Shown: positions 1,176-47,716 of the stretch, in pieces
How positions within the stretch are numbered: position 1 is the stretch's first letter
Layout of the letters: each line of letters opens with the position of its first letter
DNA from: an uncultured virus (IMG/VR IMGVR_UViG_3300022700_000241)
Taxonomy: Duplodnaviria > Heunggongvirae > Uroviricota > Caudoviricetes
DNA length: 64,000 nucleotides
Reading direction: 5' to 3' (one strand)
IMG/VR virus record: IMGVR_UViG_3300022700_000241
Notes under the pieces: generated by a model
The model's input: the letters and a program-made list of their open reading frames with translations, nothing else
Database searches by the model: none
What the model was told of the DNA's origin: nothing
Program-made: the position numbers and the translations under genes

Positions 1176-1784
1176 CCCGAAATCTCCCCGACCGTGGGAA
1201 ATTTCCGACGACCCGGCCCACCCGCAGGGCGTTTTGGGCGAAAGTCGAGGACACTACACGTGCGCGCACGTTGACCCCCCCTCGAACCCGGGTCGGAGCC
1301 CCAAAGACGCCCCGATATTTCTTGGCCAGCCGGGAGAGTGCCCGACGCAGGCACCCCGAAATCACGGTATCGTCGGTAAGACCCGACGATATGAGTGAGA
1401 TCCAGAAAAATCCCGTCGGGTATATGGAGGCGCGAGAGACGCCCTCTCTCGCGTTGACCCCCCTAAGCTGTGCGATGGGTCTAAGACTCCCTGTTTGAGC
1501 CGCTCTGCTTAGCTCTGAGCCCAGAGGAGACGATGAGCCTCGACCCCGACCCTCCTCTCCGATCCCCTCCCAGCGGTGCCGACAAATCCGCAAACCCCCC
1601 GAAATCGGCCTCGCGTGTACGCTCGTTCGAGTAAATAGGCCCACGGTCTGTGTCGGATTCGGCGGTGATTTTTGTGCCGGATGGAACGGGAGACCAAAAT
1701 TCCTATAAACCCCGGTAGGTCCGCGTCCTGGTGGCGCGGGCCGCCCGGACCGCCATCCACTTCTCAACAACCCGAGCCCAACCG
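1176..1784. promoter_or_regulatory. Non-coding repeat/palindrome-rich region (possible origin or promoter region)
   Basis: CCCGAAATC at 1176, 1355 and 1598. CGTTGACCCCCC at 1269 and 1452. Perfect palindrome ACGTGCGCGCACGT at 1258-1271. Inverted pair TATCGTCGG/CCGACGATA at 1368-1391. No convincing ORF. Confidence 0.4.
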
Positions 1785-3497
1785 ATGTCCAGTGACGAAA
1801 CGATCATGCCCAGTGATGTGGGCGCCGACGAAAACTCCTCCACCCCCAACGGGTCTCCGGCCACCACCGAGAGCCGGGTTCAGGAAGCCCCACCGGAAAG
1901 CGACGACGCGCCGTGGGCGACCTCTCACTTTGAGGTGATGATGGGGAAGACCCTGTACGGTGCCATTCTGGACGCGGAGACCGACGACCTTATTGCCCAG
2001 GTCGAAAAGCGCAACTCGACCTCGATTCACGACCTCCGTGAGCGAGAGGGAATCTCCGGGAAGGTCATCTATCTCACCGAGGGGGAGGACGGGGATGAGC
2101 GCCGGATAGAACTGTCGCTCAAGGAGAGCGCCAACAGCAAGGGAGAAGAGACCGAAGAATCCGACATGGAGAAGCTCGTCGGGACGCTCCGCGAGGAAAT
2201 CCGCTCGATGCGCTCGGAGCAGTCCCCGAGCGGTCCCGGCCCGGATGCCGACAAAGACGACCTGTGGGACCAGATCAATACGCTCCGTGAGCGGCTATCA
2301 AAAATGCGGGACGAGAAGCAGAATCTCCTCGATGACCTCGACGAGGCGGAAGGCAAGCTCCGCAAGGTGCGCAACGAAAAACGCTCCGAGATTGCCACGC
2401 TCCGGGACAAGCGGGAGGAGTTTCGGGTCAAGTTCCAGCAGATGAAGCGCGAGCGAGATCGTCTCGAACGCCAACTCGAAGACGCCGAAGAGCGGGCCGA
2501 GGAACTGGAGGATACGGTCACCTCGCTCCGCGACCGGAACGACCGTCTCAAGTCGAAGGTGGCCAACGTCGGGGACGAGGAGGACGGGGCCGCCGACGGG
2601 TTTTGGGCGCGCCTCTTCGAGCGGCTTCTGGGGGAGGATGGGATGCTTTCCGACGTGGACGGGACGGCGATCTCTCGCGTCATGGCCCAGCTTTCCCAGC
2701 AGCAGGCGCAAAGCCAGCCCCAACAGGTCCCCGCAGGCGCCGCCGGACAAATGCAGCGCAGCGCGGGCGCCCCGCAGGTGTCTGCTCAAAATGGCGGAGG
2801 CGCCGTTCACCGCGCCCCCCAGCAGCCGGGCGGACAGGGCGGCCAGCCACCCGGCGCACAGCAAGCCCAGCAGGCGGGGCAGAGCCAGCAGGGCCAACCC
2901 TCACAACAGTCCCAGAACCAACCCGAAGAGATGATGGACCGTGACGAAGCGATTGGCGACCTATTCAAGCGAATCATCGAAGACAGCGTAGGGCGACTCC
3001 AAGGGAGCTTTTCGGAGGAGGACATCCAGGAATCCGCGGCCCTCGTGTCCCAGCGCCTCGACGAGTACCGCACGCAGCAGGGCTTCGAGATCCAGCCCCA
3101 CGAGTGGTCCCAGCTTCTCATCGAGCTTACTGCGGCGGTCGACCGAATGGACATCGAAGGCGGCAAGGCCGAGGTGTTTTGCCACAAGCTGTGGCCGATG
3201 CTCCAGGTGTTTTCCGACCAGCTTGAGGTGGTCAACAACTTCCCGCCCGAGCTTGCGGCGACCACCCTCCAGAACTTCTACGAGTCGAGCGACCAAATGC
3301 TACTGGGCAACAAGATCCAGGTCACCGACTCGATGCACGACGTGCTCGCCGGTGTCATCGGCGTGCTTGCCGATCACCTCGGCACCGGGCAACGACCGGG
3401 CGGCCAGCCCAGCGCCGACGGTTCCGGGAGCGGTGGTGAGGAGGGGCAGGGCGCCCTTCCCGATGATGAACAGAACGAACTGCCCCCTGGCCTCTAA
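1785..3497 (+). CDS. Acidic coiled-coil protein with Q/G/P-rich linker, function unknown
   Basis: Long heptad-like region (LWDQINTLRERLSK...LKSKV), a Gln-rich linker and a helical C-terminal domain. ATG 1785 chosen over upstream GTG 1731. Confidence 0.75.
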   Translation: MSSDETIMPSDVGADENSSTPNGSPATTESRVQEAPPESDDAPWATSHFEVMMGKTLYGAILDAETDDLIAQVEKRNSTSIHDLREREGISGKVIYLTEGEDGDERRIELSLKESANSKGEETEESDMEKLVGTLREEIRSMRSEQSPSGPGPDADKDDLWDQINTLRERLSKMRDEKQNLLDDLDEAEGKLRKVRNEKRSEIATLRDKREEFRVKFQQMKRERDRLERQLEDAEERAEELEDTVTSLRDRNDRLKSKVANVGDEEDGAADGFWARLFERLLGEDGMLSDVDGTAISRVMAQLSQQQAQSQPQQVPAGAAGQMQRSAGAPQVSAQNGGGAVHRAPQQPGGQGGQPPGAQQAQQAGQSQQGQPSQQSQNQPEEMMDRDEAIGDLFKRIIEDSVGRLQGSFSEEDIQESAALVSQRLDEYRTQQGFEIQPHEWSQLLIELTAAVDRMDIEGGKAEVFCHKLWPMLQVFSDQLEVVNNFPPELAATTLQNFYESSDQMLLGNKIQVTDSMHDVLAGVIGVLADHLGTGQRPGGQPSADGSGSGGEEGQGALPDDEQNELPPGL

Positions 3498-3630: not shown

Positions 3631-4809
3631 ATGCCTCATAACGGACGGGCACTTGAGCGCTCCGGCGCTCCTCTCAACTCTAACGTATCCACGTACCCGG
3701 GCCTGCGGCCCACCGTGCGTCTCATCGCGGAATTTGCCCTTCGGGGGCAGGGCCGCGACCCGGTTCACAAGGCCGCCCGGAAAGCGCTCCGGAGCGAAGG
3801 AGTGGAACTGATCCCGCTCCAAAAACAGACGCCCGAGTGGCGCGAGCGTGCGGCCCGCGCCATTTATGAATGGATGGGACCGAACGTCACGTACGCCTAC
3901 GACCCGGAAGGTATCGAGCAGGTCCAGGAGCCGACCGCGACGCTCATGCTCGGTCAAGGCGACTGCGACGATATGGTCTCCCTGGCCATCGCCATGCTCA
4001 CGTCCGTAGGGGTCCCGGCCCGCATCAAAGTCATCCGTCAAACCGGCTCGGACGTGTTCAATCACATCTACGCCGAGTACCAGGGGACCACGCGGGGCCG
4101 AGGCCAGTGGAAAGCCTTTGACGCGACGCTCCGGCGACCGGAGAACGGCGAGTATGGCCACGTCGGGGACGCACCCGACCCGTCGCTCATCGCCGAATCG
4201 GTCGAGGTGCCGGTCACCGGCGCCCCTGGGAATTTGGGGCCGCGCACGGAAACGGCCCTTCGGCAATTGCCCGCCGATGCAGGGATTGTACCCGACCGGA
4301 AGCTCCAGCAAGAAACCGCCCAACCCAATCAAAGCGCCCCCTCTGCCATGAGCGGACCGACTTCGAGACGCGGCGCCCCGACGGCCCTGGCCCAGGGCAC
4401 GCCAACCGGACAGCCCACCGGCGGCCAGTCGGAGGCGGAAGACCCCTTTGTAACCTCCAGCGGGGACCTCACCCGGTCGAGCCGACCGCCCGGATCCTCG
4501 AAAGCAACCGGCGTCTCGCCCGGACGCGAGGAAGTTGTCGTCGTCTCTCCCAGCCGCTACGCAGAGCTTATCCAGCAGGCCCAAACCACCGGGGACTTTG
4601 AATGCACCGTGGAGGGCCGCATGGTCATTCGCGACGCGCAGGGGCGAGAGATCCTTCCCTCTTCCGAGGTCGAGGAAGGAGGGATGCTTGCGGCTGGAAT
4701 CCCGGGATGGGTTACGCCGCTTCTTTTTGCGACCGGCGGGGTTGCGCTTATCGCCGCCCTCACCAAGGACGACGAGGAAGAAAGCGGTGGCAATGAGTCG
4801 TCCAGCTAA
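3631..4809 (+). CDS. Transglutaminase-like (papain-fold) cysteine protease with C-terminal membrane anchor
   Basis: GDCDD (Cys codon 3964), NHIYAE (His 4063) and AFDAT (Asp 4120) give a Cys-His-Asp triad with transglutaminase-core spacing. C-terminal hydrophobic helix WVTPLLFATGGVALIAAL. Start placed at ATG 3631. Confidence 0.85.
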   Translation: MPHNGRALERSGAPLNSNVSTYPGLRPTVRLIAEFALRGQGRDPVHKAARKALRSEGVELIPLQKQTPEWRERAARAIYEWMGPNVTYAYDPEGIEQVQEPTATLMLGQGDCDDMVSLAIAMLTSVGVPARIKVIRQTGSDVFNHIYAEYQGTTRGRGQWKAFDATLRRPENGEYGHVGDAPDPSLIAESVEVPVTGAPGNLGPRTETALRQLPADAGIVPDRKLQQETAQPNQSAPSAMSGPTSRRGAPTALAQGTPTGQPTGGQSEAEDPFVTSSGDLTRSSRPPGSSKATGVSPGREEVVVVSPSRYAELIQQAQTTGDFECTVEGRMVIRDAQGREILPSSEVEEGGMLAAGIPGWVTPLLFATGGVALIAALTKDDEEESGGNESSS

Positions 4810-4865: not shown

Positions 4866-5261
4866 ATGCGCTCTTCTGCGCCTCCCGTTCCGACACGCCC
4901 GACCGGCCTTGGCGCCGACCCCTCTCTGTTTGAGTCGGCCTTCGACCGACTCACCGACGTGGTGGACCAGATTGCCCCGGGTGCCCGTGGGGAGATCGTC
5001 CACCAGTATTTGATGCGGAACGGCTATTTCGACGACCCGGAGCGCGCGGCGGCGCTTTTCCAGGGGGTCCCCGAGATCGATTCCTACCTCGACCAGATCA
5101 ACGTCTCGAAGGCCTCGCAAACGACCAACCAGGGCCTTACCGGCAGTCAGGTCGCCGCCGCGACCATTGGGTTTGGTCTCGGGCTTGGCGTCGCCTACCT
5201 TGTATCCTCCGCGACTTCCTCTGCCCCCAGCAATCGGCAGCGACGACTTGAAGGCCGCTAA
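4866..5261 (+). CDS. Small membrane protein (GLG leader, C-terminal TM helix)
   Basis: N-terminal MRSSAPPVPTRPT-GLG; TM segment VAAATIGFGLGLGVAYLV. Confidence 0.75.
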   Translation: MRSSAPPVPTRPTGLGADPSLFESAFDRLTDVVDQIAPGARGEIVHQYLMRNGYFDDPERAAALFQGVPEIDSYLDQINVSKASQTTNQGLTGSQVAAATIGFGLGLGVAYLVSSATSSAPSNRQRRLEGR

Positions 5262-5284: not shown

Positions 5285-8200
5285 GTGAGCGAGCAACATT
5301 CCTCTACACAGACGGAGGCCCGCGAGGGCGGCCCTGCGGGACCCCAGCGCCAGAATCCGGATACCTCCGGCCCCAACCCGCTCGGCGAAGAGCGCGCGAT
5401 GGTCGGGAAAACCGGTCGGGATCTGGCAGATGGTGAGTACCCCGGTCTCATTTTGCCGAGCCCCTACTTCGACGTGCTCGGGGAGCCGCGGCCCTGGTTC
5501 AAGATGCTTGTCTACGGGCGCGAGGGCTCTGGGAAGTCCACGTTTGTGACCGGGCTTTGCAAGGCGTACATGCCCTATGCCCGGCACATGGACGCCAAGA
5601 TTCTTTACTGCTCCAGCGAGGAGGGACCGTCCGACACGAGCGCCGACCGCGTACAGCGACTCAACATCCGGGATGACCGGTTCGTGGTCACCTCATTTTC
5701 GACGCTGGAGGAGCTAAAGGAGGTGGTCGAGGACATCGACGCCCAGTTCGTCGTGCTCGACTCCGCAAGCGCCCTCCGAGACCAGAGCGGCGAGGGCGTT
5801 GAGATCATGAAGTTTTGCGAGCGGCAAGGCCGCGCGGTCGCCGTCATTGCCCACCAGAACTCGAAGGGCGAGGCGGCGAAGGCCCGCGACATGCGACACG
5901 AGTGCGGGATCGAGATCCAGTGCGTGCAGGAGCAGATGCCGCCCGGCAAAGCCCGCGCCTGGGGCCTCGACATCAAGGCCCCCGAGCGCCAGGGCGAGGG
6001 TGGGGAGATCATCGTGCATCTCGCCAAGAAAAAAAAGAACCGGTTCGGCGGGCGCGTGAAGGCGGCTCCGGTCCCGATGAAGGAGGATGAGATCCGAGAA
6101 ACCATCCCGGACCGCGTGATTGACCGCCGGGTCCGGAAACTCAAAGCCCACAACCAGTGGCCTATGACTGGCGGTGAGCCGGACCCTGCCACGTCCATTC
6201 GGGATAACCAGAACGGGTATTCCGGCATGGAAGGCGAGAGCCGACACCCCGGCGAGCCCCAGCGCCCGAACACTGCCGAGGACCGAGGCGGCCCGGAGAC
6301 CGGCCAGCCGGAGCCCGCTCCAGGGGATGCCGGTCCCAGTGGAATGGCCACCCCAGATGGCTCCGCCGTGGACCGAGCCGTCGAGTCGCCTGTAAATGGC
6401 CAGCAAGGCCCCGGCTCCCAGAATGGCCCCAGCGGCGGGCCGACACCGCGCCCCAATCGTTCGACCCCGAAAAATCCGACCAGTCTCATGGGATTCCCGA
6501 GCTTCATCCGAACCAACCCGGCCCAGAAGGTCGACCTCGACGAGTTCGAGTCCTTCACGCTCCGCGAGTTGATCGAGAACAACGGCAACGCGGCCCGCTC
6601 GGTCAGCTACCTCAACAAGTTCATCGGATGGGAGAGGGGGTGCGTCGCGGAGGTTTCCAACAACGAGAGCCCCGATTACCGGAGTGAGGAGGGCGGGCTG
6701 CTCGACGAGACCGAGACGCTGGAGACCGAGGACGGGGAGGTCGTCAACGGAAAGCTGCTCTCGTTTACGTACGAGCGCTTTCCGAAGTCAACCGCACGCC
6801 CGGACGCGGTAGCGGTCACCCGGATGTACCTCAATGACAAGCTGGTCGATACGATCTGCGCGGACACCGCGAAGGAGACCATCGAGATCGTCAAGGAGAA
6901 GTACGGGGACCTGGAGATCAAGGTGCTCTCCCAGGAGCATCTCCAGGACGCCTTTGGCGTCGAGGAATTTCGGCGGCTCGCTTCCGAGATCCCCAAGCGC
7001 CAAGACGAAGACAAAGGCACGGTCCCGTCGAACGTCCGCACTGAGGGGTTTGCCTCCAACGAGGTCTCCCCGCGCGGGCATATCAACACCGACATGGGAC
7101 TGGTCGACAAGCGAGTCATCAACCTCGCGAAGGAGGCGGCGAATGGCGAGTTTACCGGAATGGATGACGATGAGGGAGAAGTTCTTTCCGAGGGGGAGCT
7201 TCCCGCCAGCGCCGACCACGGGGTTGAGCTATTCGGCACCGAGTACATTTTCTACGAGACCGATCAGTTTGAACTGGAGGTCTCCACCGGAGACACGTTC
7301 TTCGTTGGCAGCCGGTCGACACGCGGGGACACCTCCCTCGCCGAGAGCCTCATGGGGTTCAACTTCGGCGCCGAAACGAACCTGTCCGGCGAGGAGCCCG
7401 AGCAGGTCGAGGAGGAGGTCCAAGAGGAAGAGGAGGAAGAGCCCGATATGACGGAGGAGGTCGAGGAGGCCGGACCGCCGGACGTGATGGCGCAGGTCCA
7501 AGACCTCATCGATCAGATTCCCGGCGACACGGAAGCGGGCTTCTTCGGCACTCACGAGGAGGAGGAAACCCCGACGATTGATTCTGCCGCGCTGGAGATC
7601 CTCACCGAGATGGCCGGTTCGGTAGACCGGGAGCAGGCCGGAAGCCGCGAGTTGGTCACGTTGGAGATTGCTGGGCTGACCGCCCTGGCCACCGAGTCGG
7701 ACCTTGTATTGGACGCCCCGACCGCCGACGACCCGTTCTACCAGCTTTCCGTGAAGGACAACGACGAGGGTGTCGATGCGGACATGCTCGTTCTCGCGCT
7801 CCAGGACGCCAATCTCATGAGCAACACCGTCGCGCGGGAGGAGGAGGCCGAGGAAGAACCGGAATCAGTCGGTGAAGCCCTTGGCCAGCGCGCCGAGGAG
7901 GCCGCAGGCATCGATGACGACATCGTGCCGGGCGGCTTCGCGCAAACCTCCCAGGGCATGTTTGTCGGGGGCGACGGGCTCGCGATCTTGCAGGAGGTGA
8001 GCGACGATTCTACCCAGTCCTCCGTGACGTTCGAGCTTGCGGGCGAGACGCTTCGCTTCTCGGTCGAACCCGCCCCGACGAAGTTCATCGGCAGCGAGGA
8101 AAACGGCGCGTTCCTGCTTACCGCTTCCTCGGAGGCGGCCCAGGACCTTTCGGTTCGCGGCTTGCTTATGGCCTTCGATGAGAGCGGCGCGATGCGCAGG

Positions 8201-8365
8201 CAAGCCGTTAGCGAGCAGGTCACCGAGCCCGCCGAGGAGGAAGAGGAGCCCGAACCGGCCCCGGAGCCTTCCACACCCGAACCGGAAGAGGAGACGGAGG
8301 CCTCCGCTACCGAACAAGCCACCGAGCAGATTGGGCAGATGATGAGTCAACTTGAGGACCTGTAA
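5285..8365 (+). CDS. RadA/Sms-like RecA-fold ATPase fused to long acidic C-terminal domains
   Basis: Walker A GREGSGKS (5516), LYCSSEE, Walker B FVVLDS, VIAHQN and the RadA-family signature KNRFG (6035-6049). Two RxNP motifs. Start uncertain (GTG 5285 or ATG 5399). Confidence 0.8.
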   Translation: MSEQHSSTQTEAREGGPAGPQRQNPDTSGPNPLGEERAMVGKTGRDLADGEYPGLILPSPYFDVLGEPRPWFKMLVYGREGSGKSTFVTGLCKAYMPYARHMDAKILYCSSEEGPSDTSADRVQRLNIRDDRFVVTSFSTLEELKEVVEDIDAQFVVLDSASALRDQSGEGVEIMKFCERQGRAVAVIAHQNSKGEAAKARDMRHECGIEIQCVQEQMPPGKARAWGLDIKAPERQGEGGEIIVHLAKKKKNRFGGRVKAAPVPMKEDEIRETIPDRVIDRRVRKLKAHNQWPMTGGEPDPATSIRDNQNGYSGMEGESRHPGEPQRPNTAEDRGGPETGQPEPAPGDAGPSGMATPDGSAVDRAVESPVNGQQGPGSQNGPSGGPTPRPNRSTPKNPTSLMGFPSFIRTNPAQKVDLDEFESFTLRELIENNGNAARSVSYLNKFIGWERGCVAEVSNNESPDYRSEEGGLLDETETLETEDGEVVNGKLLSFTYERFPKSTARPDAVAVTRMYLNDKLVDTICADTAKETIEIVKEKYGDLEIKVLSQEHLQDAFGVEEFRRLASEIPKRQDEDKGTVPSNVRTEGFASNEVSPRGHINTDMGLVDKRVINLAKEAANGEFTGMDDDEGEVLSEGELPASADHGVELFGTEYIFYETDQFELEVSTGDTFFVGSRSTRGDTSLAESLMGFNFGAETNLSGEEPEQVEEEVQEEEEEEPDMTEEVEEAGPPDVMAQVQDLIDQIPGDTEAGFFGTHEEEETPTIDSAALEILTEMAGSVDREQAGSRELVTLEIAGLTALATESDLVLDAPTADDPFYQLSVKDNDEGVDADMLVLALQDANLMSNTVAREEEAEEEPESVGEALGQRAEEAAGIDDDIVPGGFAQTSQGMFVGGDGLAILQEVSDDSTQSSVTFELAGETLRFSVEPAPTKFIGSEENGAFLLTASSEAAQDLSVRGLLMAFDESGAMRRQAVSEQVTEPAEEEEEPEPAPEPSTPEPEEETEASATEQATEQIGQMMSQLEDL

Positions 8366-8414: not shown

Positions 8415-11400
8415 ATGCTTCCCGACGAAGGAATTATCCGCTGGCTCGACCGGCAGGCCCGTAGCGGCCCGCTCCTCAACCGATCTGGGGACCTGCATGA
8501 ACCCCCGGAGTTTTTGGGCGGGAGCGCCGGGATCGAGAGCGTCGAGCCTCGTGAGAACCCCATCGAGGTGGAGGGGCCAGCCCTAAGCGACGAGGAGTAC
8601 CGCGATTCGGTGCGCGATCTGACCGCTGACATGCGGGACCGGGTACTCTTCATCACGCAAGGAATGGGCGAGGAGGAGCTTGCCGTCTTTGCCCGCAAGG
8701 TCAAGCAGCTTCGGAGCAAGGCACTATCGGGCGATCTCTTCGGGGGCTTTATCCGGCAGAACCCGCCCCTCCCCGGTGCTCGGACGACGGTAACCCGCGA
8801 TTACTCCGAGATGCGGGACAACCCAGCGGACAAAGAGATTTCCAGGCGGTCGTTTCGGGAGTTGGTGCAGGGGGTATTCGACCACCTCAACGACGAACTC
8901 CAGGCCCGAACCGAGGCCCTCTCGAAACGGGAGCGCGGATACGTCGTCGAGAAGCTCAAGCACGCACGAAGCGCCCTTTCTACGCCTCGGATGAACCCCA
9001 ACGGCGAAAGCGAAGGCGACGAAGAGGAGAAGCCGTGGTGGGTTGATGAGGGGCCGGAGAACCCCGACCGATTTGCCTCTCGCAACAAGGCCGAACAGCG
9101 CGGTGTGCTTCTCGGCTGCGGGGAGGAGTTTCACGAGCACGAGGAGGACGGAGAGACGTTCTACATGCCCTGTGCCACCCACCGGGAGTGGAAGAAGAAA
9201 ACCGGGCGGGACAACCCCTCGAAAAACTACCACGAGGCCAAGATCCGGAGCACCGGGGGCGACAAATACGAGACGTACCGGCGCGAGGACAATCCGGACG
9301 GGTTTGAGCGCGGAATCCAGGTTCTCTATGGCATTCGCCCCGAAGAGGAAGAGGGTCCGCGCGGAGGCCGCTCCGAGATCGTAAGCGTCTTCTACCCTTC
9401 CGACGAGTGGAACGCGGCCAACGCGCGCCGACACGCGGAAGCGACCTTCGAGAGCTTCGACAGCTTCGGCGAAGCGACCGGCTCTCGGGAGAACCCCGAG
9501 GCCGAATCTCGCACCGTGGAGCTTCGCGTTGAATATGACCTTGAGGCCGGAAACCGGAGCCACAAAGAGGTCATGAACTGGCTCCGGGAGGCGGTCGGTC
9601 GTCTCGGCGGTGAAATCGTCTGGACCGAGAGCTACGGACCGGCAGGCGCACCTGTATCCATCGAGGTTGGAATTGAAGTGTTTGGCGTGCAGGAGGCGGC
9701 GACCCTACAGCACCGATTCGAGGAGCACATGCGCTCGGAGCTTCCCGGCGTCGCCTCCATCCATACCACCGATGTAGGTGTGGCAGAAAATGTGTCGTCC
9801 GACGCCGATACGGTCGTGACCGTTGACGTGCAATACTCGGCGAGCGAACTCCCCCAGGTCGACCCCGGGGACGCCCCGGAGGACGACCGGTTCTACCACG
9901 ACGCAAAGTCGATGGTCAAAGACACGCTCGGGGGCTGGACGATGGGGGCGAGCGAGCTTGCGACTCCTCGGACGATCCGGTTCGGCTTCCCAACGGCCCA
10001 CGAGGCCATTCGAGCGGAAGCGATTCTCAAAGACGCAACCGACCACTACGAAACGGCCCGCGTCTACCTCTCCTCGATCACCGACGAGACGACCGAAGAG
10101 GAGCCGCTTCGCCTTAACCCGCAGACCTCCCACGCCGGAGGGGATTCCCGGCTGGTCCGCGTCACCGAGCAGAGCGGTGACCTCGGGCAGTTTGAGTCCT
10201 CTCCCCGCGTGCGCGGCATGATCGAGCGCACAGCCGATGCGGCGGGCGGGGAAGTCGTCGGCGTGTCCGAGGCCCCGGGAGGGACCGTGCGCGACGTGTA
10301 CGTTGAGTTCGACAGCCCCACCGGGGCGGAGATGTTCACCAACGAATTGAACACGACGTTCTTCACCCGCGGGCTTTCCGACCGCGCTTTGGCGGTCCAG
10401 GAGTCCCCCTCTCGGCTCGCTGCACGCGAGAACCCAACCAGCGGCGACGGTGCGGTGGCCCGGGTTGGCGTAATCGGTAGCGGTGAGGACATGCCCGACA
10501 TTCTCTCGATGGTCGAGGAGGCCGCCGAGGCGGAAGACGGAGAGATCACCGGCGTGCGGCAGTCCGAAAGTGGCGGCGCAAAGGATTACCTTGTTACCGC
10601 GCCGACGACCGATAAAGCGCGCGCAATCATCAACGACCTCAACAACCGGTTCTCTACGCAGGGAATCGGCGAGGCCGCGACCGCGACGCTCCAGCACGAG
10701 GCCCGTGAGAATCCCCCTGCGGAAATGCGTGTGGGGATTAACATGAACCGAATCGACGAAGATGCTCCCGACGTGCTTTCGATGGTCGAGGAAGCCGCCG
10801 AGGAAAACGGAGGCGAGATTTCTGGCGTTCGCCAGTCGGACGACGGGTCCACGAAAGACTACACGGTGACGGCCCCTACGACAGCGAAGGCTCGGTCGAT
10901 CATCGAAGACTTGAGTAGCGAGTTCACGACGCAAGGAATGGCGTCGGCCACGACCGTCACCCTACAGCACGAGGCCCGGGAGAATCCGCCCGGTCATACA
11001 GTTCGCATTGAGGTCCCGCAGTCGCCGAACGTCTATCCAGAGGGCGTGTCTGCGTCGGATTTGCGCGATAAGATCCTGGACACTGCCGGAGGCATGGGCG
11101 GCTCTGTGCGGCGCTCCTCCGAGGAGGTGATTGAGGTCACCTTCGACAACACCGAAAACGCAATCTCCCTCCAGGAGGCGGTCATCGACGACGCAAACGA
11201 CATGGGCGTCTCCAATGTCTTCGTGGTGCGGAAAAACGCGACCGCGCGCCCGAATCCGGCCTCTACGGTTCTGGTTCGCTATCCCAGCGGCCAGTCGGGA
11301 CTCGACGACACGGTACGAAGCGCCGCCGAGGGCGCGGGTGGACACGTCCGCTCCGTCGGTTCGGCGACGGGCTCGAAGTACAGCGGAATGAAAGAGGCGG

Positions 11401-12149
11401 AGATTCGCTTCAACTCCGAGAGCGAATCGTTCAGCGGCGTTGGTCAGATTGAGTCGTCCCTTCGCTCGGAAGGAGTCGGCGAGTTCGAGGCCCGAACGCT
11501 CGCGGACGAGGACGTGCCGCCGGTTCGCCCGAACCCCATTTTCCCCGGTGAGGGCGAAAGTCTCCTGTCCCTCTCCAGTGAAGAGCCGGAAGGCAGCGAC
11601 GAAAGCGCCCTCGGGCTCCAGGACGAGCCGGAGGGGACTGGCGAATCGGCCTTGAGCATGAAATCGCGTGAGGCCCCTGCCGAGGTCGTATCCACGGCGT
11701 ACCGGCTGGGCAAAGAGGAGGGCGAGGAAGACGGCCTGCCCAACTACAACGACGAGGATGAGGCCTTTCGTCACGCCGTACAGACACTCCCCGGAACCGA
11801 CGCGCTGGAGGGGATCGATACGTCGACGCCCGACGGGCTTCTGGCCTTGGAGGAGGCAGCGTCCGCCTGGGTAAACGGGTACGCCGAGTCGACGGGAAGC
11901 AATTGGCCGCGGCTCAACCCACACGCCGGAGAGGAGAGCGAGCCCGACCCGGACACGGATGCCACTGGCATGGCAGCGCCCTCACACGCACCCGCTCGTG
12001 AGAACCCCGAGGGAAAGAAAGGCGGGCGCGAGGCGTTGTCATACCTCGCAATGACCGCCGCACTTCTCGGCGGCGGCGTCTACCTCGCCGATAGCGTCCT
12101 TACCGAACGCGCCGATAGCGCCCCCGCAACTGCAATCGTCAACGAGTAA
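8415..12149 (+). CDS. 1244-aa modular protein with 14 RxNP motifs, ACT/ferredoxin-like repeats and C-terminal TM anchor
   Basis: 14 RxNP motifs. A Cys/His module GCGEEFHEH..YMPCATH. About 7 related beta-alpha-beta-beta-alpha-beta-like units. TM segment LSYLAMTAALLGGGVYLA. Confidence 0.85.
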   Translation: MLPDEGIIRWLDRQARSGPLLNRSGDLHEPPEFLGGSAGIESVEPRENPIEVEGPALSDEEYRDSVRDLTADMRDRVLFITQGMGEEELAVFARKVKQLRSKALSGDLFGGFIRQNPPLPGARTTVTRDYSEMRDNPADKEISRRSFRELVQGVFDHLNDELQARTEALSKRERGYVVEKLKHARSALSTPRMNPNGESEGDEEEKPWWVDEGPENPDRFASRNKAEQRGVLLGCGEEFHEHEEDGETFYMPCATHREWKKKTGRDNPSKNYHEAKIRSTGGDKYETYRREDNPDGFERGIQVLYGIRPEEEEGPRGGRSEIVSVFYPSDEWNAANARRHAEATFESFDSFGEATGSRENPEAESRTVELRVEYDLEAGNRSHKEVMNWLREAVGRLGGEIVWTESYGPAGAPVSIEVGIEVFGVQEAATLQHRFEEHMRSELPGVASIHTTDVGVAENVSSDADTVVTVDVQYSASELPQVDPGDAPEDDRFYHDAKSMVKDTLGGWTMGASELATPRTIRFGFPTAHEAIRAEAILKDATDHYETARVYLSSITDETTEEEPLRLNPQTSHAGGDSRLVRVTEQSGDLGQFESSPRVRGMIERTADAAGGEVVGVSEAPGGTVRDVYVEFDSPTGAEMFTNELNTTFFTRGLSDRALAVQESPSRLAARENPTSGDGAVARVGVIGSGEDMPDILSMVEEAAEAEDGEITGVRQSESGGAKDYLVTAPTTDKARAIINDLNNRFSTQGIGEAATATLQHEARENPPAEMRVGINMNRIDEDAPDVLSMVEEAAEENGGEISGVRQSDDGSTKDYTVTAPTTAKARSIIEDLSSEFTTQGMASATTVTLQHEARENPPGHTVRIEVPQSPNVYPEGVSASDLRDKILDTAGGMGGSVRRSSEEVIEVTFDNTENAISLQEAVIDDANDMGVSNVFVVRKNATARPNPASTVLVRYPSGQSGLDDTVRSAAEGAGGHVRSVGSATGSKYSGMKEAEIRFNSESESFSGVGQIESSLRSEGVGEFEARTLADEDVPPVRPNPIFPGEGESLLSLSSEEPEGSDESALGLQDEPEGTGESALSMKSREAPAEVVSTAYRLGKEEGEEDGLPNYNDEDEAFRHAVQTLPGTDALEGIDTSTPDGLLALEEAASAWVNGYAESTGSNWPRLNPHAGEESEPDPDTDATGMAAPSHAPARENPEGKKGGREALSYLAMTAALLGGGVYLADSVLTERADSAPATAIVNE
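10425..10988 (+). repeat. Tandem duplication of a ~92-aa RxNP-bounded module
   Basis: Units 10425-10703 and 10704-10976 share PD(I/V)LSMVEEAAE..GEI(T/S)GVRQS..G..KDY.VTAPTT.KAR.II.DL...F.TQG...TLQHEARENPP. Confidence 0.9.
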
Positions 12150-19787: not shown

Positions 19788-22700
19788 ATGGCAACAGATG
19801 AGGATGCTTCCCGCGCAGGACTCGAACGCGCCGAGGTGGGCGACTGCGACATTTCCGGACTTACACCGTCGGACCCGCAGGTCTACACGAAGCCACAAAT
19901 GCGCGACCGCATCAAGGCGGAAATTTACTGCTCCGACAAGGGTGGGGACCCCGGCGAATGGTCCGCCCGGAAGGCACAGCTAACGGTCCAGCGCTACGAG
20001 GCGGAGGGCGGAGGGTACAAGAATGAGGGCGAGTTTGAACGGTCCCAGGAAGACCTCATGATCTGGACCGAACAGGAGTGGCAAACCGAGGACGGTACCC
20101 CGTCCTTGCCGGAGGGGGACCGATACCTTCCGAGGGACTTCTGGGACACCTTGTCGGAGGAGGAGAAGAGAAAGGTAAACGAGACGAAGGAGGAGGGCAC
20201 CGAAGAGGGAAAACAGTTCGTGTCGCTTCCGGAGGAGATCAGCGAAAAGTTTGCCGAGTGGCGGGAGGAGAACCGAGAGAAGTACCTGGAAGAAGCCCGA
20301 GAGAACCCGAACCCAAAGCGCGAGCGTCGGCAGCGAGAGATGGCCCGTGAGGCGCACAACATTCTCCTCGGCTACGTCCAGGGGTGGAGCCCCGTCCGGG
20401 AGCCCGAGAAGATGCAGCAGACCACGTACTACTCCGGGCGGGGTGAGTGGCACAACGTCCTGTACGCCGATGCGGATCTGGTTGGGTTCGATGAGGAGGT
20501 GCGCCCGCTGCACTTCGGGTTTCACGGCACGCGGCGAATTGCCGAACATGCGATTTACAAGGGGGATGCCGGAGCGCTTCGCGTCGCCGAACCGGGGGAG
20601 CCGGGCATCTTCATTCGGATTACCGGCTCGTTTGACTACCCCGACTCCCTCAAGAAAGTCGAGCCGGAGGCGCTGACCGACAGCGACTTTCTGTTCGAGC
20701 ACGGGGCCTCGGATCTCCGAGACGGGCGCGGTCCGCCGGTGTTGGAGGCGTCTTTCGCGACCGTGCAGGCTGGGGTCGAAGAAATCACGACGCCCAGGCC
20801 GATGTACGTCCAGGAGTCGGACATCCCGCTTCTGGGCCTCGGGGATGACGACACGTTCGGCCCGGACCCCTCCGAGGTTACTGACGAAGACGTGCGGGAC
20901 GCATTGCTCCAGGTGGCCCGGCTCATGGCGACGAACACTCGCAAGCTGCAAACCGACGATCCGGATAGGGCCGAGCGGGCGATGCGCGAGGCAGTCTCGA
21001 ACCTCCGGTCCGCAAAGGAGCAGGTCATCTACGTGCTCGGGCAGGAGAAGTCGACCTTCATTCACGAGTTCCAGCACCATCTCGACGTACTTCGCTCCGA
21101 GGGGCCGGTACGCGGCTCCGCCTCTCTTATGGAGCACGGCATCCCGACGGACGAATACTTCAACGTCGCCCCCGAAGTCAACGCGCGATACCAGGAGGGC
21201 CTTGCCGACTTCGAGGAGACGATCCTATCGAACGAGTCGGACCTGCGGCGGCGCATGGAAGGGGGCTTTTCGGCCCGTGACCTGTTTCGCGTGCTTGAGC
21301 GATTTACCCCCCAGTTCGAGAAGCTAAGCGAGGAGAACCAGAGGCGCCTCTACAAGCGGTGGTTCCGGTATTGGAAGGAGATTGTCGAGCCGCGCCTGGA
21401 GGAGATCCGCGAGCAGGCAGGTGAAGAAGCGGCGGGCAGCGGGCTCCCGGAGGATCTCAAGACCCTCCTACAGGCCGCCGAGACCCTCGCCGACGCGCAA
21501 CAAACCCTGGAGGACGAGATTGAGGAGGCGCCCGGGCCGCTCGGTCGGTCGATGGAGACGGATCGAAAGCTAAGCGCCCTGGAGGAAAAGATCAGTGAGG
21601 GACTTGAGACCCTTCGCGAGAAGGCCGACGCGCGGGGCTACGACTTCGACACGATTGTCGAGCGGACGGCTCTCTCCGTCCCGCGGGAGAACCCCCCGGA
21701 CCCTGGCGGGAAGCGACATCTGGAGCGCGACGGAGAAATTCTCGATCCGGATCTGTACGTGACCGGCTTTCCGGGAGAACCGGAAAACACGATGACCGAA
21801 GAGGGCATCGAGGGCGCGAAGTTCAAGCTGTGGTTCGGCGACTGGGAAAGCCCAGACGCCGACCATTCGGTCGTCACCGGTGAGGAGGGGCGCCCTCTTC
21901 CGGTTTATCACGGCACGCAGAACGGGGGCTTCAATCGCTTCATGGTTGGAGAGGAACTGCGCGACGACGGCAGCCCGGGCGTTTTCTTTACCGACAGCCG
22001 CCGACACGCCGAAAGCTACTCGGGGTCGAATGAGGACATCGGCCCGTCGGTCATCGGCCCTGCGGAGCTAACCGACCCGGAGTTTGGGTTCGAGGTAGAG
22101 GTGCAGCGAATCGAGAAGCGGGCCTACGACGTGATTGATGAAGACGGAGAGACCGTGGCCACGGTGCTGGAAGATAGCCCGCGCTTCCCCGACACGCTCG
22201 CACAATACGAGGAAGAGGGGTACGACACCGAAGAAACCCTCGTCGACCGGTACAACGTCACCCATCGCGGGGTGTGGGTGCTCTCGAACGGGACGGAGAA
22301 AGAGAAAATCGTGGCCCTGGAGAAAATCGCAGACGAGGCCAATGACCGCGCGGAGATCCCACCCCGACAGGACAAAGGCATCCTCACTGCCTACCTGAAC
22401 GTCCGTGATCCGCTCGTGCTGGACTTCAAGGGCCAGCCCTGGGAGGACCCCCCGGAGCACATCGACTTCTTCTCTATCGACGAGGCGTCCCGTTTTGCGA
22501 AAAACGCCGGATACGACGCCCTTGTGGCGAAGAACATCCACGATCCGGGCGGGGAGACTCGATACGCGGGCACAGCCACCGAGTATATCGTCTTCAATGG
22601 GGACCAAGTGGCCGTCAAGGGATTCCGTGGCGGACAAATCGCAATTCCTCGCTCACAGACAGACGTTCGCCTCAACCCCGCCATGCTTGCAAAGCGCACC

Positions 22701-25700
22701 CGAGTCAATCCACCCTCGGAAGCCACCGTCGACGTGCCGGGCGGCCCCACCTACACCGTCGAGCCCGACGACATCATTTTGCGGGAAGGAGTGAGCCACG
22801 AGGAGCTTTCTCGGGAGAAGGTCGCTGCCCCGCCGGTTGAGGCGCGAGAGCTTGCGCAAAAGGCCCGCAAGTGGAAAGAAAAGGGCGCGCCGGGAATGCA
22901 CGAGACCGGGCTTCGCCGAATGCTCCAAATTGGGGCGGGGTACCAGCTTTCCCCGGCGGAAATGGAGGTCGTCAAAAACTGGTTCGCCCGCAAGAAGAGC
23001 GAGAAAGAAAAGGGGTATCACAAGATGGAGGCGTGGTCGGGCCACGACGAGGAGCGGCCCAGCGAAAGCCTTCTGTCCTGGTGGGGGTGGGGCGGAGAAC
23101 CCATGATGGAATGGGTCGAAAAGAAGCTCGCCGAGATGCCCGACCGCGTTCGGTTGACCGATGAGGCCCTGGCCGACCGGGAAAACCCCCTCGTCGAGCC
23201 TCAAGTCGAGACGGGCGAAGATCCTCCAATTGTGGTCGATTCCTACTTCGTGGATCTGACCACGGAGGTGGTCTACCCGTCCCCCGGGACGGACTATGGC
23301 TTTCGTCTGGAAACCGGGACCCTCGGGGAGACCTACGCCTACGGCTTCTCTCGACGCGGGGACTTTGGCGGGGAGGACTACGAGGGCCTCGCCGAGCTAT
23401 CCTGGATCCAGGTCGATGAGGCTTACCGCGGGCAGGGCGTTGGCCTTCGGCTCTTGGGGGACGTGCTTCGCTTCCTGTCCGCTACCGGGGCCTCGCACGT
23501 GGCGGTGCGCGCACTTTCCGATGAGGCCCACGGTCTCAACGAGCGTGCCGAGGACCTCGGGCTCTGGCACCGGACGATGGAGTCGGAGGAAGGGATGGAG
23601 ATGTACGCCATTGACGTAGGCGCGAAAAGCAGGCTCGGGGTACCTGTCACTGGTTCCAGCTTCGAGTTCGACGCGGACCGAGACGACGTTGAGGACGCAA
23701 TCCGGTTTCTGTACGACCCCTCCGATGTCGTGTGGCGCGCGGCGGCGCAGCCGACCGACGCCCGCCCCTACACCTACGCCCAGCCCTTGCGCCCGGCCTC
23801 TTCGTCGGGGGATCTGGAAGGGGAGTACAACCGCGACGTGGAAATCTACGAGACGTTTGACGATGCCCCCGACGTGCAGCAGACCAACGGGTTCTTTTTC
23901 CGGACCGATGCCCCGATCACCGTCCGTGACCTCACCCGCACGAGCGCCGAGCCGTTGGGGATCGACACCCGCACATGGACGCTCGTAAATGCAGTCAACT
24001 CCTACCAGGACACGCCTGGGCTTCCCGAGTTTGCGATCATCAACCGCGATAAGCGGTGGGTTATGGAGATCGAACAGGGCGAAGGCGAGGCCGACGGCAA
24101 AACCCTGGTGACATTCTCCCGCGTCGGAAGCCGCAACATCGAGACGCACGAGCACCCCTCGATCTACGACGCCCTCGAAGAAACGCTTCGGTTCCGTGAC
24201 CGCGGGGACCGGGTAGAGTATCTGCCCCTGGAGTTTGTGGATACGGCCCTCGATCAGTGGGAGGAAGACGAGCGCGAAAATCCGGCGGAGGGACTCACGC
24301 GAGAGGGCGTTGCCCAGGCCACACGGATGCTCGCCTATGAGCTTCGCCGCCACCTCTGGGAGCGCGGGCGACTCACGTTCAACGACAACGAGGCCACAGA
24401 GGACCTCCTCCAAGTGGCCGAGGGCATTGAGGAGGGAGGCGTTGAGGTCGACCCGCTTTCGTTCCAGCCGATCCCGGTGGAGGAGATTCCGAAGGGCATC
24501 AAGCGAGACGTGCAGTCTGCCCTCGAAGCGGTTGGAGACCTCCGCACCCTCGAAGAGTTTGCGGAAGAGGAGGTCATGCCGTTCGTCGAGGAGGGCATGG
24601 AGGTCGAGACCTTCGACCCGTACGGCGAGACAGACGATCCGGTAGAGCTTCTCAAGCGGCAGCTTCCGGTCGCGTCCTCGTGGCAGCAAACCGGATACTT
24701 GACTCCCGACGGAACGCCTCTCTCCCTTGGCGGGTCTGGTGCGGCGCGCTTCAAGGACCACCGGGACCCGCACGTGCCGGACCGACTCATTCCCGACTGG
24801 CTCAACCCCGAGAAGAACTTTGCGTCGATGGTTGCGCTCATGGAGGCCGGTGTAATCCGAGTGCTTGACCCCGGAGGCGGATTGGGGATGGACATGAACC
24901 GGGAGCCTACCCCCGCGCAAAAGCAGTGGATCCGCGAGGCAATTCTAAGCACCCGCGCCCCGAGCGAAGTCATCGTCGACGTGAAAAAGCCCGGAGAGGA
25001 AGCCGATGAGTCCGATAGCGCGGTCCTCGAACCCCTCCCGCGCAAGGTGATCCGCTTCATCGAGGACTTCTACTCGGAGGGCGGCGGGTCGAAGGTGGCG
25101 CGCTTCCGCCGCCGCAACCCGGAGGACACGATCTCGGAGGCGATGGCGCGGCGATACCCGACCTGGAAGCTCCGCGGGTCTCGCGACCGGATTCCGGCGA
25201 TGAACGTGAAGTGGATCATGCCGGGCGGGCAGGCCATCGGTGCCGAAGATGAGGGGACCCGCGACACCCACCACAACCACTTTGAGCTTCCACAGGAGTT
25301 TGAAACTGACAAGATGCCCCGGCGCGAACTTGTCGACCGGCACGCGCTTCGCGTCTGGGTGACCTCCCTCTCTTCCATCGACCACAAGACAATCAACCTC
25401 GAATCGCACTTTCCGCCCACGACTGCACAGGAAGAAGCGCTCCGCGACTTGGCGGCGGCCACCGGCGCGGACAAGATCGTCGGCGACCTTGCCGATCACC
25501 GCGGCGACACGAACGGCGGGGTCCCGACCCGCCGGGTAAACGCCGACAGCGCAGAGCGCTTCATTGAGCAGGCGCAGAGCTTCTACGGCGGGGAAGGGGG
25601 CTTCTCCTCGAAGCTCCAGCGATTCCGGGGCGGGCGCGCCAACCCCTCTGGTGAGGCCTCCTACGTCCTGGCCGTCGGCGACGCAGAAGACGCGAACCTC

Positions 25701-26210
25701 CAGAACTTCAAGCCGGAGAGTCAGCGGCTCGTCGTCATGAGCCCGAGCAAGTACCTCAAGCACGCGCGGAAGCATTTCGAGGACGTGCCCGGCGGCACCT
25801 ATGAGGACGCGCGCCTCTCGGTCAGCCGCGACTCGGTACACATTAGCGGAGAGCGTATCGAGGAGCTAAAGGAACGGATGGTCGAGGGCAAACCCATCGA
25901 CGCACTTTGGTTCGACGTGCGCCTCGACCAGCAAGGCACCGACTCCCCGATCATCGGACAGGAGGGGCGCCACCGCGCCCTCGCGGCCAAAGAACTGGGG
26001 CTCCGTCACGTGCCGGTGATCCTGTTTGCGCATCGGCAGAAGAAGGGCTCCGGCATGTTCGGTGGGGTGTCCAATGTCAAGGTGCCCGCCGACGGAGAAA
26101 CCTTCCCCGAGCGGATCATGGCCGGGGCCACCGAGGTCCAGTGGCCTTCCTCGCCGACGCCGGTGAAGACCCTCTGGCGAGAGGCACGGTTTGGCCGAGA
26201 GTTTGCGTAG
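19788..26210 (+). CDS. 2140-aa polyvalent protein: DUF5872-like, HExxH metallopeptidase-like, ART-PolyVal-like, GNAT and ParB-like modules separated by RxNP
   Basis: YTKP..KGGDPGEWSARKAQ..YEAEGGGYK..RYLP (DUF5872-like). FIHEFQHH (21063). WFGDW..RPLPVYHGT..VFFTD..YLNVRDP..GYDAL..EYIVF (ART-like). IQVDEAYRGQGVG (GNAT). MSP..EGRHRALAAKELG..VPV (ParB-like). 8 RxNP motifs. Confidence 0.85.
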   Translation: MATDEDASRAGLERAEVGDCDISGLTPSDPQVYTKPQMRDRIKAEIYCSDKGGDPGEWSARKAQLTVQRYEAEGGGYKNEGEFERSQEDLMIWTEQEWQTEDGTPSLPEGDRYLPRDFWDTLSEEEKRKVNETKEEGTEEGKQFVSLPEEISEKFAEWREENREKYLEEARENPNPKRERRQREMAREAHNILLGYVQGWSPVREPEKMQQTTYYSGRGEWHNVLYADADLVGFDEEVRPLHFGFHGTRRIAEHAIYKGDAGALRVAEPGEPGIFIRITGSFDYPDSLKKVEPEALTDSDFLFEHGASDLRDGRGPPVLEASFATVQAGVEEITTPRPMYVQESDIPLLGLGDDDTFGPDPSEVTDEDVRDALLQVARLMATNTRKLQTDDPDRAERAMREAVSNLRSAKEQVIYVLGQEKSTFIHEFQHHLDVLRSEGPVRGSASLMEHGIPTDEYFNVAPEVNARYQEGLADFEETILSNESDLRRRMEGGFSARDLFRVLERFTPQFEKLSEENQRRLYKRWFRYWKEIVEPRLEEIREQAGEEAAGSGLPEDLKTLLQAAETLADAQQTLEDEIEEAPGPLGRSMETDRKLSALEEKISEGLETLREKADARGYDFDTIVERTALSVPRENPPDPGGKRHLERDGEILDPDLYVTGFPGEPENTMTEEGIEGAKFKLWFGDWESPDADHSVVTGEEGRPLPVYHGTQNGGFNRFMVGEELRDDGSPGVFFTDSRRHAESYSGSNEDIGPSVIGPAELTDPEFGFEVEVQRIEKRAYDVIDEDGETVATVLEDSPRFPDTLAQYEEEGYDTEETLVDRYNVTHRGVWVLSNGTEKEKIVALEKIADEANDRAEIPPRQDKGILTAYLNVRDPLVLDFKGQPWEDPPEHIDFFSIDEASRFAKNAGYDALVAKNIHDPGGETRYAGTATEYIVFNGDQVAVKGFRGGQIAIPRSQTDVRLNPAMLAKRTRVNPPSEATVDVPGGPTYTVEPDDIILREGVSHEELSREKVAAPPVEARELAQKARKWKEKGAPGMHETGLRRMLQIGAGYQLSPAEMEVVKNWFARKKSEKEKGYHKMEAWSGHDEERPSESLLSWWGWGGEPMMEWVEKKLAEMPDRVRLTDEALADRENPLVEPQVETGEDPPIVVDSYFVDLTTEVVYPSPGTDYGFRLETGTLGETYAYGFSRRGDFGGEDYEGLAELSWIQVDEAYRGQGVGLRLLGDVLRFLSATGASHVAVRALSDEAHGLNERAEDLGLWHRTMESEEGMEMYAIDVGAKSRLGVPVTGSSFEFDADRDDVEDAIRFLYDPSDVVWRAAAQPTDARPYTYAQPLRPASSSGDLEGEYNRDVEIYETFDDAPDVQQTNGFFFRTDAPITVRDLTRTSAEPLGIDTRTWTLVNAVNSYQDTPGLPEFAIINRDKRWVMEIEQGEGEADGKTLVTFSRVGSRNIETHEHPSIYDALEETLRFRDRGDRVEYLPLEFVDTALDQWEEDERENPAEGLTREGVAQATRMLAYELRRHLWERGRLTFNDNEATEDLLQVAEGIEEGGVEVDPLSFQPIPVEEIPKGIKRDVQSALEAVGDLRTLEEFAEEEVMPFVEEGMEVETFDPYGETDDPVELLKRQLPVASSWQQTGYLTPDGTPLSLGGSGAARFKDHRDPHVPDRLIPDWLNPEKNFASMVALMEAGVIRVLDPGGGLGMDMNREPTPAQKQWIREAILSTRAPSEVIVDVKKPGEEADESDSAVLEPLPRKVIRFIEDFYSEGGGSKVARFRRRNPEDTISEAMARRYPTWKLRGSRDRIPAMNVKWIMPGGQAIGAEDEGTRDTHHNHFELPQEFETDKMPRRELVDRHALRVWVTSLSSIDHKTINLESHFPPTTAQEEALRDLAAATGADKIVGDLADHRGDTNGGVPTRRVNADSAERFIEQAQSFYGGEGGFSSKLQRFRGGRANPSGEASYVLAVGDAEDANLQNFKPESQRLVVMSPSKYLKHARKHFEDVPGGTYEDARLSVSRDSVHISGERIEELKERMVEGKPIDALWFDVRLDQQGTDSPIIGQEGRHRALAAKELGLRHVPVILFAHRQKKGSGMFGGVSNVKVPADGETFPERIMAGATEVQWPSSPTPVKTLWREARFGREFA

Positions 26211-42702: not shown

Positions 42703-42819
42703 GTCGTCCGGGGCCGCGCCCCGCACGTGCTCTCAAGTCCTCCGAGCGGGCGGGCACACTCCCGCCCCGGGGGCAGAAAGTTTCTTGCTTGACACTCCAA
42801 AAGACGCTCGCTCGACACT

Positions 42820-47703: not shown

Positions 47704-47716
47704 GCCACAGGGGCCG

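Follow-up and report, generated by a model that had tools for sequence, protein, structure and literature searches.

SSIP-1, short for Salisaeta icosahedral phage 1, is described, in extracts from two published accounts, as a tailless 44-kb phage with an internal membrane (PMC6356626, PMC6260650), and the extract from the first also reports that it encodes two major capsid protein types (PMC6356626). Here, we compare with this salt-lake phage a 64,000-nucleotide stretch of DNA from an uncultured virus (IMG/VR record IMGVR_UViG_3300022700_000241), referred to throughout as the window, and concentrate on the gene at 3631..4809 on its plus strand. The product of this gene is a transglutaminase-fold enzyme of 392 amino acids (aa) homologous to SSIP-1 gp34.

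To our knowledge, no maturation protease is thought to take part in the assembly of tailless membrane-containing phages of the PRD1 and SSIP-1 types, in contrast to that of tailed phages and adenovirus, and a literature search returned nothing that contradicts protease-free assembly in this group. Many virion proteins are trimmed at short motifs by gp21 in phage T4 and by the adenovirus protease, and LapG and the lasso-peptide leader peptidases are examples of transglutaminase-like proteases that cut at defined sites. The literature search found no paper linking a transglutaminase-like enzyme to a maturation step in bacterial jelly-roll phages, and none that gives gp34 or its enzyme family a function, the protein data of the SSIP-1 paper lying outside what was covered.

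We show that the late genes of the window are strongly enriched in a conserved peptide motif, R-x-N-P (hereafter RxNP), and that the gp34-type enzyme retains an invariant Cys-His-Asp triad and a C-terminal hydrophobic segment. With somewhat less than even confidence we take the enzyme to be a virion processing peptidase, and we suggest tentatively that it may trim the phage's particle proteins at RxNP.

Results

An SSIP-1-like phage with a gp34-type enzyme

In a tblastn search with the enzyme, the sole match among 50,697 phage records was SSIP-1 gp34 (JN880423, 21296-22210; 304 aa, annotated 'structural protein'), with 28.8% identity over aa 22-167 and an E value of 2e-9; gp34 is the enzyme's only cultured relative. 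The two proteins share the core Cys, His and Asp and a C-terminal helix (aa 282-300 in gp34), and each is encoded directly downstream of homologous coiled-coil genes and upstream of ATPase, giant-protein, and capsid genes. They differ in that gp34, at 304 aa, has no recognizable counterpart of a conserved domain that occupies aa 301-346 of the window enzyme. The upstream partner in the window (1731..3497, plus strand) is a 588-aa coiled-coil protein homologous to SSIP-1 ORF33 (BLASTP E 7e-5, aa 69-239); the homology spans the N-terminal domain and the coiled coil, and the protein's Pfam matches are to coiled coils only, all under the cut-offs. ORF33 lies directly upstream of gp34 and is not annotated as structural in the SSIP-1 record. 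By sequence similarity, by the pairing of a catalytic domain with a C-terminal helix, and by gene neighborhood, the window protein is a new member of the gp34 family, whose presence in the virion is known from a single source, the annotation of the gp34 record. A preliminary description of the window had stated that transglutaminase-fold proteins occur in tailless viruses of prokaryotes, and gp34, as an annotated structural protein, bears this out for tailless membrane phages.

The relationship extends beyond the enzyme. We examined 54 window proteins (18,447 aa), 34 encoded on the plus strand and 20 on the minus strand. The plus-strand block (1-52,300) carries DnaB and then the late genes, among which the enzyme gene stands second, as its earlier placement near the head of the structural block had implied; the minus-strand block carries ParB-like, primase-like, and resolvase genes. 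Six further proteins of the 54 match SSIP-1, five of them corresponding to virion genes (gp40, gp43, gp45, gp46, and gp47) and the sixth to ORF3. From these sequence relationships, the window is part of an SSIP-1-like, tailless, membrane-containing phage about three times larger than the sole cultured member, the size estimate resting on the occurrence of the window's own protein on contigs of up to 135,993 bp.

A transglutaminase fold with an invariant catalytic triad

The reading frame of the enzyme spans 3538/3631..4809, and we take ATG 3631 as the start because an aligned Met opens 15 of 18 family members, these being the window protein and 17 full-length relatives at 41-83% identity. Its GC3-rich codon usage (G+C at third codon positions) matches that of the neighboring genes. 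The Pfam Transglut_core profile (PF01841) matches aa 70-164 with an E value of 2.6e-10 and 41 bits against a cut-off of 23. Cys112 (codon 3964..3966, within GQGDCDD), His145 (4063..4065), and Asp164 (4120..4122), all on the plus strand, are invariant in all 18 aligned members (41-100% identity), and they lie in the three strings – GDCDD, NHIYAE, and AFDAT – from which the triad had originally been read, each of which is present in the translation. By sequence, then, the product of this gene is an apparently active enzyme of the transglutaminase (papain-like) fold whose Cys-His-Asp triad is intact and invariant.

An AlphaFold2 model built on the 18 sequences has a mean predicted local distance difference test (pLDDT) score of 61.8; it is confident over aa 23-231, disordered over 232-301, moderate over a small alpha/beta unit at 301-346, and poor beyond. 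The confident part is the catalytic transglutaminase-core domain (aa 23-231; 3697..4323), which also aligns with known structures in VIA-align. It is followed by a variable low-complexity tether (aa 232-300; 4324..4530) that differs in length and sequence among relatives, with pLDDT below 50 over 232-301, and then by the small conserved membrane-proximal domain (aa 301-346; 4531..4668). This domain has no Pfam match even at E 10 and contains 13 residues invariant in the 18-member alignment (V302, P307, Y310, Q316, G321, C325, I333, R334, G338, and E340-P343). A Kyte-Doolittle scan finds a single hydrophobic segment, the predicted C-terminal membrane helix at aa 357-375 (4699..4755; window score 1.59), ahead of a short acidic tail; the preliminary description had noted this helix, and the hydrophobic stretch is kept in 18 of 18 members. 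Neither the sequence nor the scan reveals a signal-like stretch at the N-terminus. The likeness of the anchor to those of other proteins in the block is also upheld, since the same scan places a hydrophobic segment whose end is at most 45 residues from the C-terminus in 13 other proteins of the plus strand, and the RxNP-rich 1244-aa protein described below is one of them.

When the catalytic core was aligned with transglutaminase-fold chains in VIA-align, the highest scores were obtained with 3isr_B (Z 11.1), 3kd4_A (Z 11.0), and factor XIII (1qrk_A, Z 10.8), with further scores for PNGase (Z 9.1), the pseudomurein isopeptidase PeiP (8z4f, Z 8.4), and LapG (4u65_E, Z 8.1). Foldseek on the core matched 3kd4 at E 4e-6 and also 4fgq (LapG); 3isr and 3kd4 are the putative proteases among these fold matches. 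The top BFVD viral model was a 304-aa protein (28% identity, E 1.5e-9), followed by two unnamed proteins and then psiM2 PeiP. At the sequence level, PF01841 and a sub-threshold PF04473 are the only family models that match at E 0.1, a limit at which neither the PeiW/PeiP (C71) nor the BTLCP/LapG (C93) model does so. Searches of PHROGs, NCBIfam, and PDB sequences place the enzyme in no family, and a profile run against PDB sequences yields 3isr alone, at E 1.4. The PF01841 profile, the ordered and conserved Cys-His-Asp, and the transglutaminase-core fold agree on superfamily membership. Judged from the model, the core belongs to the transglutaminase fold but to no particular subfamily, and the fold identifies an 'active thiol enzyme' and not its substrate, because proteases, amidases, a cell-wall isopeptidase, and true transglutaminases match about equally.

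The described enzymes of this fold each differ from the window enzyme in architecture. PeiW and PeiP (MEROPS C71, PF12386) resemble it in being phage-encoded and in having a transglutaminase-like fold with Cys-His-Asp (Z 8.4 over 130 aa; root-mean-square deviation 3.7), but they are soluble archaeal-phage lysins with wall-binding repeats, whereas the window enzyme is predicted to be membrane-anchored and lacks such repeats. LapG and the BTLCP proteins share the fold (4u65_E at Z 8.1; 4fgq in Foldseek), although LapG is periplasmic with a signal peptide and the N-terminus of the window enzyme is not hydrophobic. Factor XIII, TG2, and TG3 align with the core over about 181 residues (Z 10-10.8), but their flanking beta-sandwich and barrel domains are absent from the enzyme, and identity is 12-18%.

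RxNP is a conserved peptide motif of the late proteins

The preliminary description had proposed that the enzyme cleaves at RxNP and/or GL[GSA], and the two motifs fared differently. RxNP occurs at 43 sites in the window proteins against 2.6±1.6 expected, a 16-fold excess, with a maximum of 8 in 300 shuffles of the 18,447 aa. GL[GSA], at 32 observed against 29.5±5.4 expected, was rejected as a proteome-wide tag. RxNP is found in nine of the 34 plus-strand proteins and in none of the 20 minus-strand proteins, over a span of 5285-51508. Fourteen sites lie in a 1244-aa C-terminally anchored protein (8415..12149, plus strand), the last of them 12 aa before its membrane helix; a further eight and nine lie in two polyvalent proteins of 2140 aa (19788..26210, plus strand) and 3952 aa (26304..38162, plus strand), respectively, and the remaining 12 are distributed over six other proteins.

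The codons for Arg, Asn, and Pro vary among the sites, and the flanks are polar and unconserved. This codon variation rules out a signal at the DNA level, so that selection acts on the peptide. The relatives of the 1244-aa protein have RxNP counts of 14, 14, 13, 14, 13, 12, 12, 11, 10, 7, 5, and 5, and down to 41% identity the sites stay aligned while the linkers between them change; PPVRPNPIFP at aa 1035-1044 and RENP at aa 1195-1198 are two of the conserved sites. A 292-aa membrane protein (50630..51508, plus strand) has a leader with two RxNP sites followed by GLGAPIKQTG, and a further RENP after its helix. Among the leader-bearing members of its family the first RxNP is kept in five of five and the second, together with GLG(A/E)P(I/V)KQTG, in six of six; four other members are called from a Met just behind the leader. 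As a control, thirteen unrelated loci (59,649 aa) have 7 RxNP against 6.0 expected. RxNP is a real, conserved, protein-level short linear motif in its own right.

Within the 1244-aa protein, RxNP recurs every 90-105 aa over aa ~566-1038, each occurrence closing one sequence unit, a pattern reminiscent of a polyprotein or of beads strung on a membrane anchor.

For Gly-hydrophobic-Gly, the leaders show a weak enrichment at most. G[LVFIM]G occurs 45 times proteome-wide against 36±6, and in the N-terminal leaders of eight of the 34 plus-strand proteins against 4.5 expected, a value reached in 29 of 500 shuffles. In the late genes of SSIP-1 such leaders number four in 24 against 2.6, which is not significant, and the further tag forms DFG, RG[LMI]G, and [AI]F..G[LVF]G are not enriched in the window.

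Distribution of the enzyme and of RxNP among relatives

SSIP-1 itself has 5 RxNP against 1.1±1.0 expected, four of them in ORF41-43; they include RENP at aa 2-5 and 254-257 of gp41 and at aa 2153-2156 of gp43. The placement is also shared: RxNP lies about 12 aa before the membrane helix in gp41 as in the 1244-aa protein, and it also stands ahead of the gp43-type C-terminal domain common to both phages, at a distance of 34 aa in SSIP-1 and 49 aa in the window, where this domain forms the C-terminus of the 3952-aa protein (BLASTP E 1e-11 to structural gp43).

More distant relatives were found in a metagenome scan, which gave 16 loci with 27-41% identity in the catalytic domain only. G[QE]GDCDD, with the catalytic Cys, and the His are invariant in 12 of 12 distant viral relatives, and Glu replaces the Asp in several of those encoded by small elements. 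In six loci (L002, L003, L005, L006, L007, and L013), on contigs of 7-21 kb, a short ORF (163-215 aa) that encodes the transglutaminase domain alone comes immediately after a conserved ~400-aa gene and in most cases overlaps it; a DNA polymerase gene (phrog_1907) is present in five of the six, lying upstream in four, and a gene for single-stranded DNA-binding protein is present in four. This syntenic set is followed by unknown genes, some encoding basic arms that end in R[RK]NP. The ~400-aa gene was considered as a homolog of the upstream partner and rejected, having no profile similarity to the partner in the window or in SSIP-1; its model is poor (pLDDT 54), and the best fold match, a small RbcS-like domain at Z 8.2, is uninformative.

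With a profile of the viral enzymes, 23,018 proteins of the library match at E <= 1e-3, and at E <= 1e-30 there remain 895 cluster representatives. The best 150 library matches comprise 108 short proteins and 42 long ones (at least 260 aa); DCDD is kept in 146 of the 150, and 24 of the 42 long relatives have a hydrophobic C-terminal segment. No usable match came from scanning IMG/VR with two alignments or with the sequences of the enzyme, the ATPase domain, and a capsid-type protein, and a genome scan returned only generic transglutaminase-like proteins; the ESM Atlas offers viral Transglut_core clusters (score 0.88) as a lead only. The family is large, and it is represented by only the general transglutaminase-core model in Pfam, with no PHROGs or NCBIfam match.

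The proposed co-occurrence of the enzyme with RxNP enrichment holds in part. It is seen in SSIP-1 and in L003, which has 6 RxNP against 0.9 expected and a maximum of 4 in 200 shuffles, and fails in L006 and L007, each with 0, and in L013 and L017, which have no excess. L002 and L005 have 2 RxNP each, within reach of some shuffles. R[RK]NP closes basic N-terminal arms in L002, L003, and L005, and in aligned families the NP is invariant even where the Arg has been lost. The enzyme itself contains no NP.

Other genes of the window

The next gene downstream of the enzyme (4866..5261, plus strand) encodes a protein of 131 aa that is anchored at its C-terminus and has a GLG at aa 14. It is followed by a gene for a 1026-aa protein (5285..8365, plus strand) with an N-terminal ATPase like that of structural gp40 (phrog_6891 E 1.2e-17; tblastn to the gp40 region E 2.7e-17) and RxNP at aa 22 and 409. 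Beyond the gene for the 1244-aa protein, that at 12159-13082 (plus strand) encodes a protein with a membrane helix at aa 128-146 and RxNP sites at 164 and 218. At 13113-13814 is a 233-aa C-terminally anchored protein that contains, unusually for a phage membrane protein, a type I dockerin domain (E 7.8e-17).

The 2140-aa polyvalent protein has an ART-PolyVal domain and the window's only HExxH. The preliminary description had named this module as an alternative protease, and its presence is confirmed: the 54 proteins contain a single instance, HEFQH, which begins at aa 426 of this protein; as a recognized peptidase it was rejected, since it has no MPTase-PolyVal match and its best match is Peptidase_M90 at E 0.089. 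The 3952-aa polyvalent protein is a DarB-like methyltransferase/helicase with an intein (Hom_end_hint and LAGLIDADG_3) at about aa 1860-2240, and it is probably the intein that accounts for several PHROG 'terminase' and 'primase' matches in this region.

Two genes of about 200 aa each (42118..43449, plus strand) are homologs of structural gp45 and gp46 (tblastn E 2e-12 and 1e-9) and, from this similarity, probably encode the two capsid proteins. The two capsid-type proteins of the window and SSIP-1 gp45 and gp46 (L001, 33241-34565) have in common N-Y-x-x-N-P-L-P near residue 50-70, with instances NYNSNPLPG, NYNQNPLPG, NYTDNPLPY, and NYIRNPLPR. A gp47 homolog, detected by tblastn to SSIP-1, lies at 43714-44583.

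The enzyme had been put forward as the only protease candidate of its class in the plus-strand block, and this does not stand, because the 376-aa product of 47672..48802 (plus strand) shows a weak CHAP/endolysin-like match. It matches phrog_21825 endolysin at E 5.8e-4; in tblastn, its aa 116-164 match at E 1e-4 a protein from a Microcystis phage named 'CHAP domain containing protein', and an N-terminal membrane helix lies at aa 19-37. By these similarities it is a candidate lysis or entry enzyme and a second papain-like candidate. On the minus strand, a serine recombinase gene (56813-57424; Resolvase E 1.3e-35) encodes a protein 41% identical to SSIP-1 ORF3 and is the best-conserved gene between the window and SSIP-1.

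Discussion

The arrangement of the late proteins suggests how an RxNP-trimming enzyme might work. It would be seated in the internal membrane of the virion through its C-terminal helix, with the catalytic domain facing the same side as the N-terminal portions of the many other virion proteins that have C-terminal anchors, a placement that we infer because the catalytic domain and most of the tagged ectodomains lie ahead of such anchors. While the particle assembles or matures, it would work as a site-specific processing peptidase, removing leaders and cutting linkers in membrane proteins and packaged proteins that bear short linear tags; the best candidate tag is RxNP, and the Gly-hydrophobic-Gly ends of some leaders may possibly serve as well. 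The Cys would attack the scissile carbonyl to give a thioester, which water would resolve as in other transglutaminase-like proteases. LapG, a site-specific protease that releases a membrane-tethered protein and whose cleavage motif is unrelated to RxNP, may be the closest working analogy for an anchor-adjacent tag. The adenovirus protease and T4 gp21 may likewise serve as a working analogy, for one virion enzyme acting on one short tag in many structural and packaged proteins, although they have other folds and catalytic types, and the cleavage considered here is putative only.

Several observations weigh against an enzyme that reads RxNP. The motif lies behind the membrane helix in the 12159-13082 protein and on both sides of it in the 50630-51508 protein, and because sites flank helices on both sides, one face-bound enzyme could not reach all of them after membrane insertion. 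Sites at aa 2675, 2699, and 2716 of the 3952-aa protein fall between its SNF2 and Helicase_C matches, so that cutting there would split the helicase, and some other sites are at residues 2-8, where cutting removes almost nothing. The 588-aa upstream partner has no RxNP site, L006 and L007 carry the enzyme yet have 0 RxNP, and the excess is wanting in L013 and L017. The transglutaminase fold does not single out proteases. Metallopeptidase domains are, in an extract from the literature on polyvalent proteins (PMC5512222), the published candidates for their processing, and an HExxH module is present in the 2140-aa protein.

Much of this – the sites on both sides of helices, inside the helicase, and at extreme N-termini, the RxNP-free L006 and L007, and the metallopeptidase proposal taken together with HEFQH – would be explained if RxNP were unrelated to the enzyme, being either a binding or packaging tag or a site cut by the HExxH module or a host protease, with the enzyme acting on some other target. 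We regard this as unlikely, in that the HEFQH segment has no convincing peptidase match, the motif is also present in many proteins that are not polyvalent, and it recurs in viruses whose sole other detected common feature is the enzyme family. In the main rival, which we judge to have a similarly small chance, a virion-borne enzyme would act as a cell-wall peptidase at entry or lysis, opening the host wall at its peptide or isopeptide cross-links once the internal membrane touches the envelope. Such a role would have a parallel in the virion lytic enzymes of PRD1-type phages. The annotation of gp34 as a virion protein and the appearance of PeiP among the fold matches (8z4f at Z 8.4; psiM2 PeiP in BFVD) fit this role, as does the failure of Pfam to find a lysozyme or transglycosylase in the window. 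There is also a precedent in PeiW and PeiP, described in extracts from PMC10318531 as transglutaminase-like enzymes that cleave an isopeptide bond of the cell wall. One of the 42 long relatives has a PG_binding_1 match exactly at the cut-off, but the other 41 have no wall-binding domain, the PeiW/PeiP and BTLCP models do not match the enzyme at E 0.1, there is no signal peptide and the catalytic domain precedes a C-terminal anchor, and a separate, weak wall-hydrolase candidate with an N-terminal helix is available at 47672-48802.

Two further possibilities seem improbable to us. In one, an amine, such as a Lys side chain or a lipid head group, would resolve the thioester; acting in this way as a transamidase or sortase-like transpeptidase, the enzyme would cross-link virion proteins, or would cut an anchor-adjacent tag and re-attach the protein. 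Sorting signals have a motif-helix-tail layout, which the tag ~12 aa before the helix in gp41 and the 1244-aa protein resembles, and the core aligns over 181 residues with factor XIII and TG2/TG3 (Z about 10-10.8); most RxNP sites, however, lie away from any anchor, and the sequence fits hydrolysis as well as transfer. In the other, given an equally slender chance, the enzyme would be delivered with the genome as an effector, i.e. a deamidase, peptidase, or counter-defence factor that modifies or cuts a host protein, much as the neighboring polyvalent proteins would act. The same block encodes two polyvalent proteins with ART-PolyVal and DarB-like anti-restriction modules, and extracts from PMC10318531 place many effectors among papain-like folds. 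A core virion role nonetheless accounts better than an accessory one for the membrane anchor and for the hallmark conservation of the gene where the structural module begins, which extends to elements of only 7-20 kb.

The putative processing peptidase can be set in a broader frame, in which an entire lineage of tailless phages with membranes, most of them uncultured, would have the gp34-type enzyme as its maturation protease, here reading RxNP to trim leaders, release anchored ectodomains, and dice packaged polyvalent proteins into working units. We think this rather doubtful, if a little less so than the cell-wall alternative; if true, it would be the first described maturation protease for bacterial jelly-roll viruses, and a convergent counterpart of the adenovirus protease on a different fold. 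The conserved virion Cys enzyme and the 16-fold over-represented, conserved tag would make the assumption of protease-free assembly directly testable, and SSIP-1, which is cultured and has both the enzyme and a few of the tags, is a suitable system for this. The outcome would, in addition, reveal how the giant anti-defence proteins packaged in the particle are set free.

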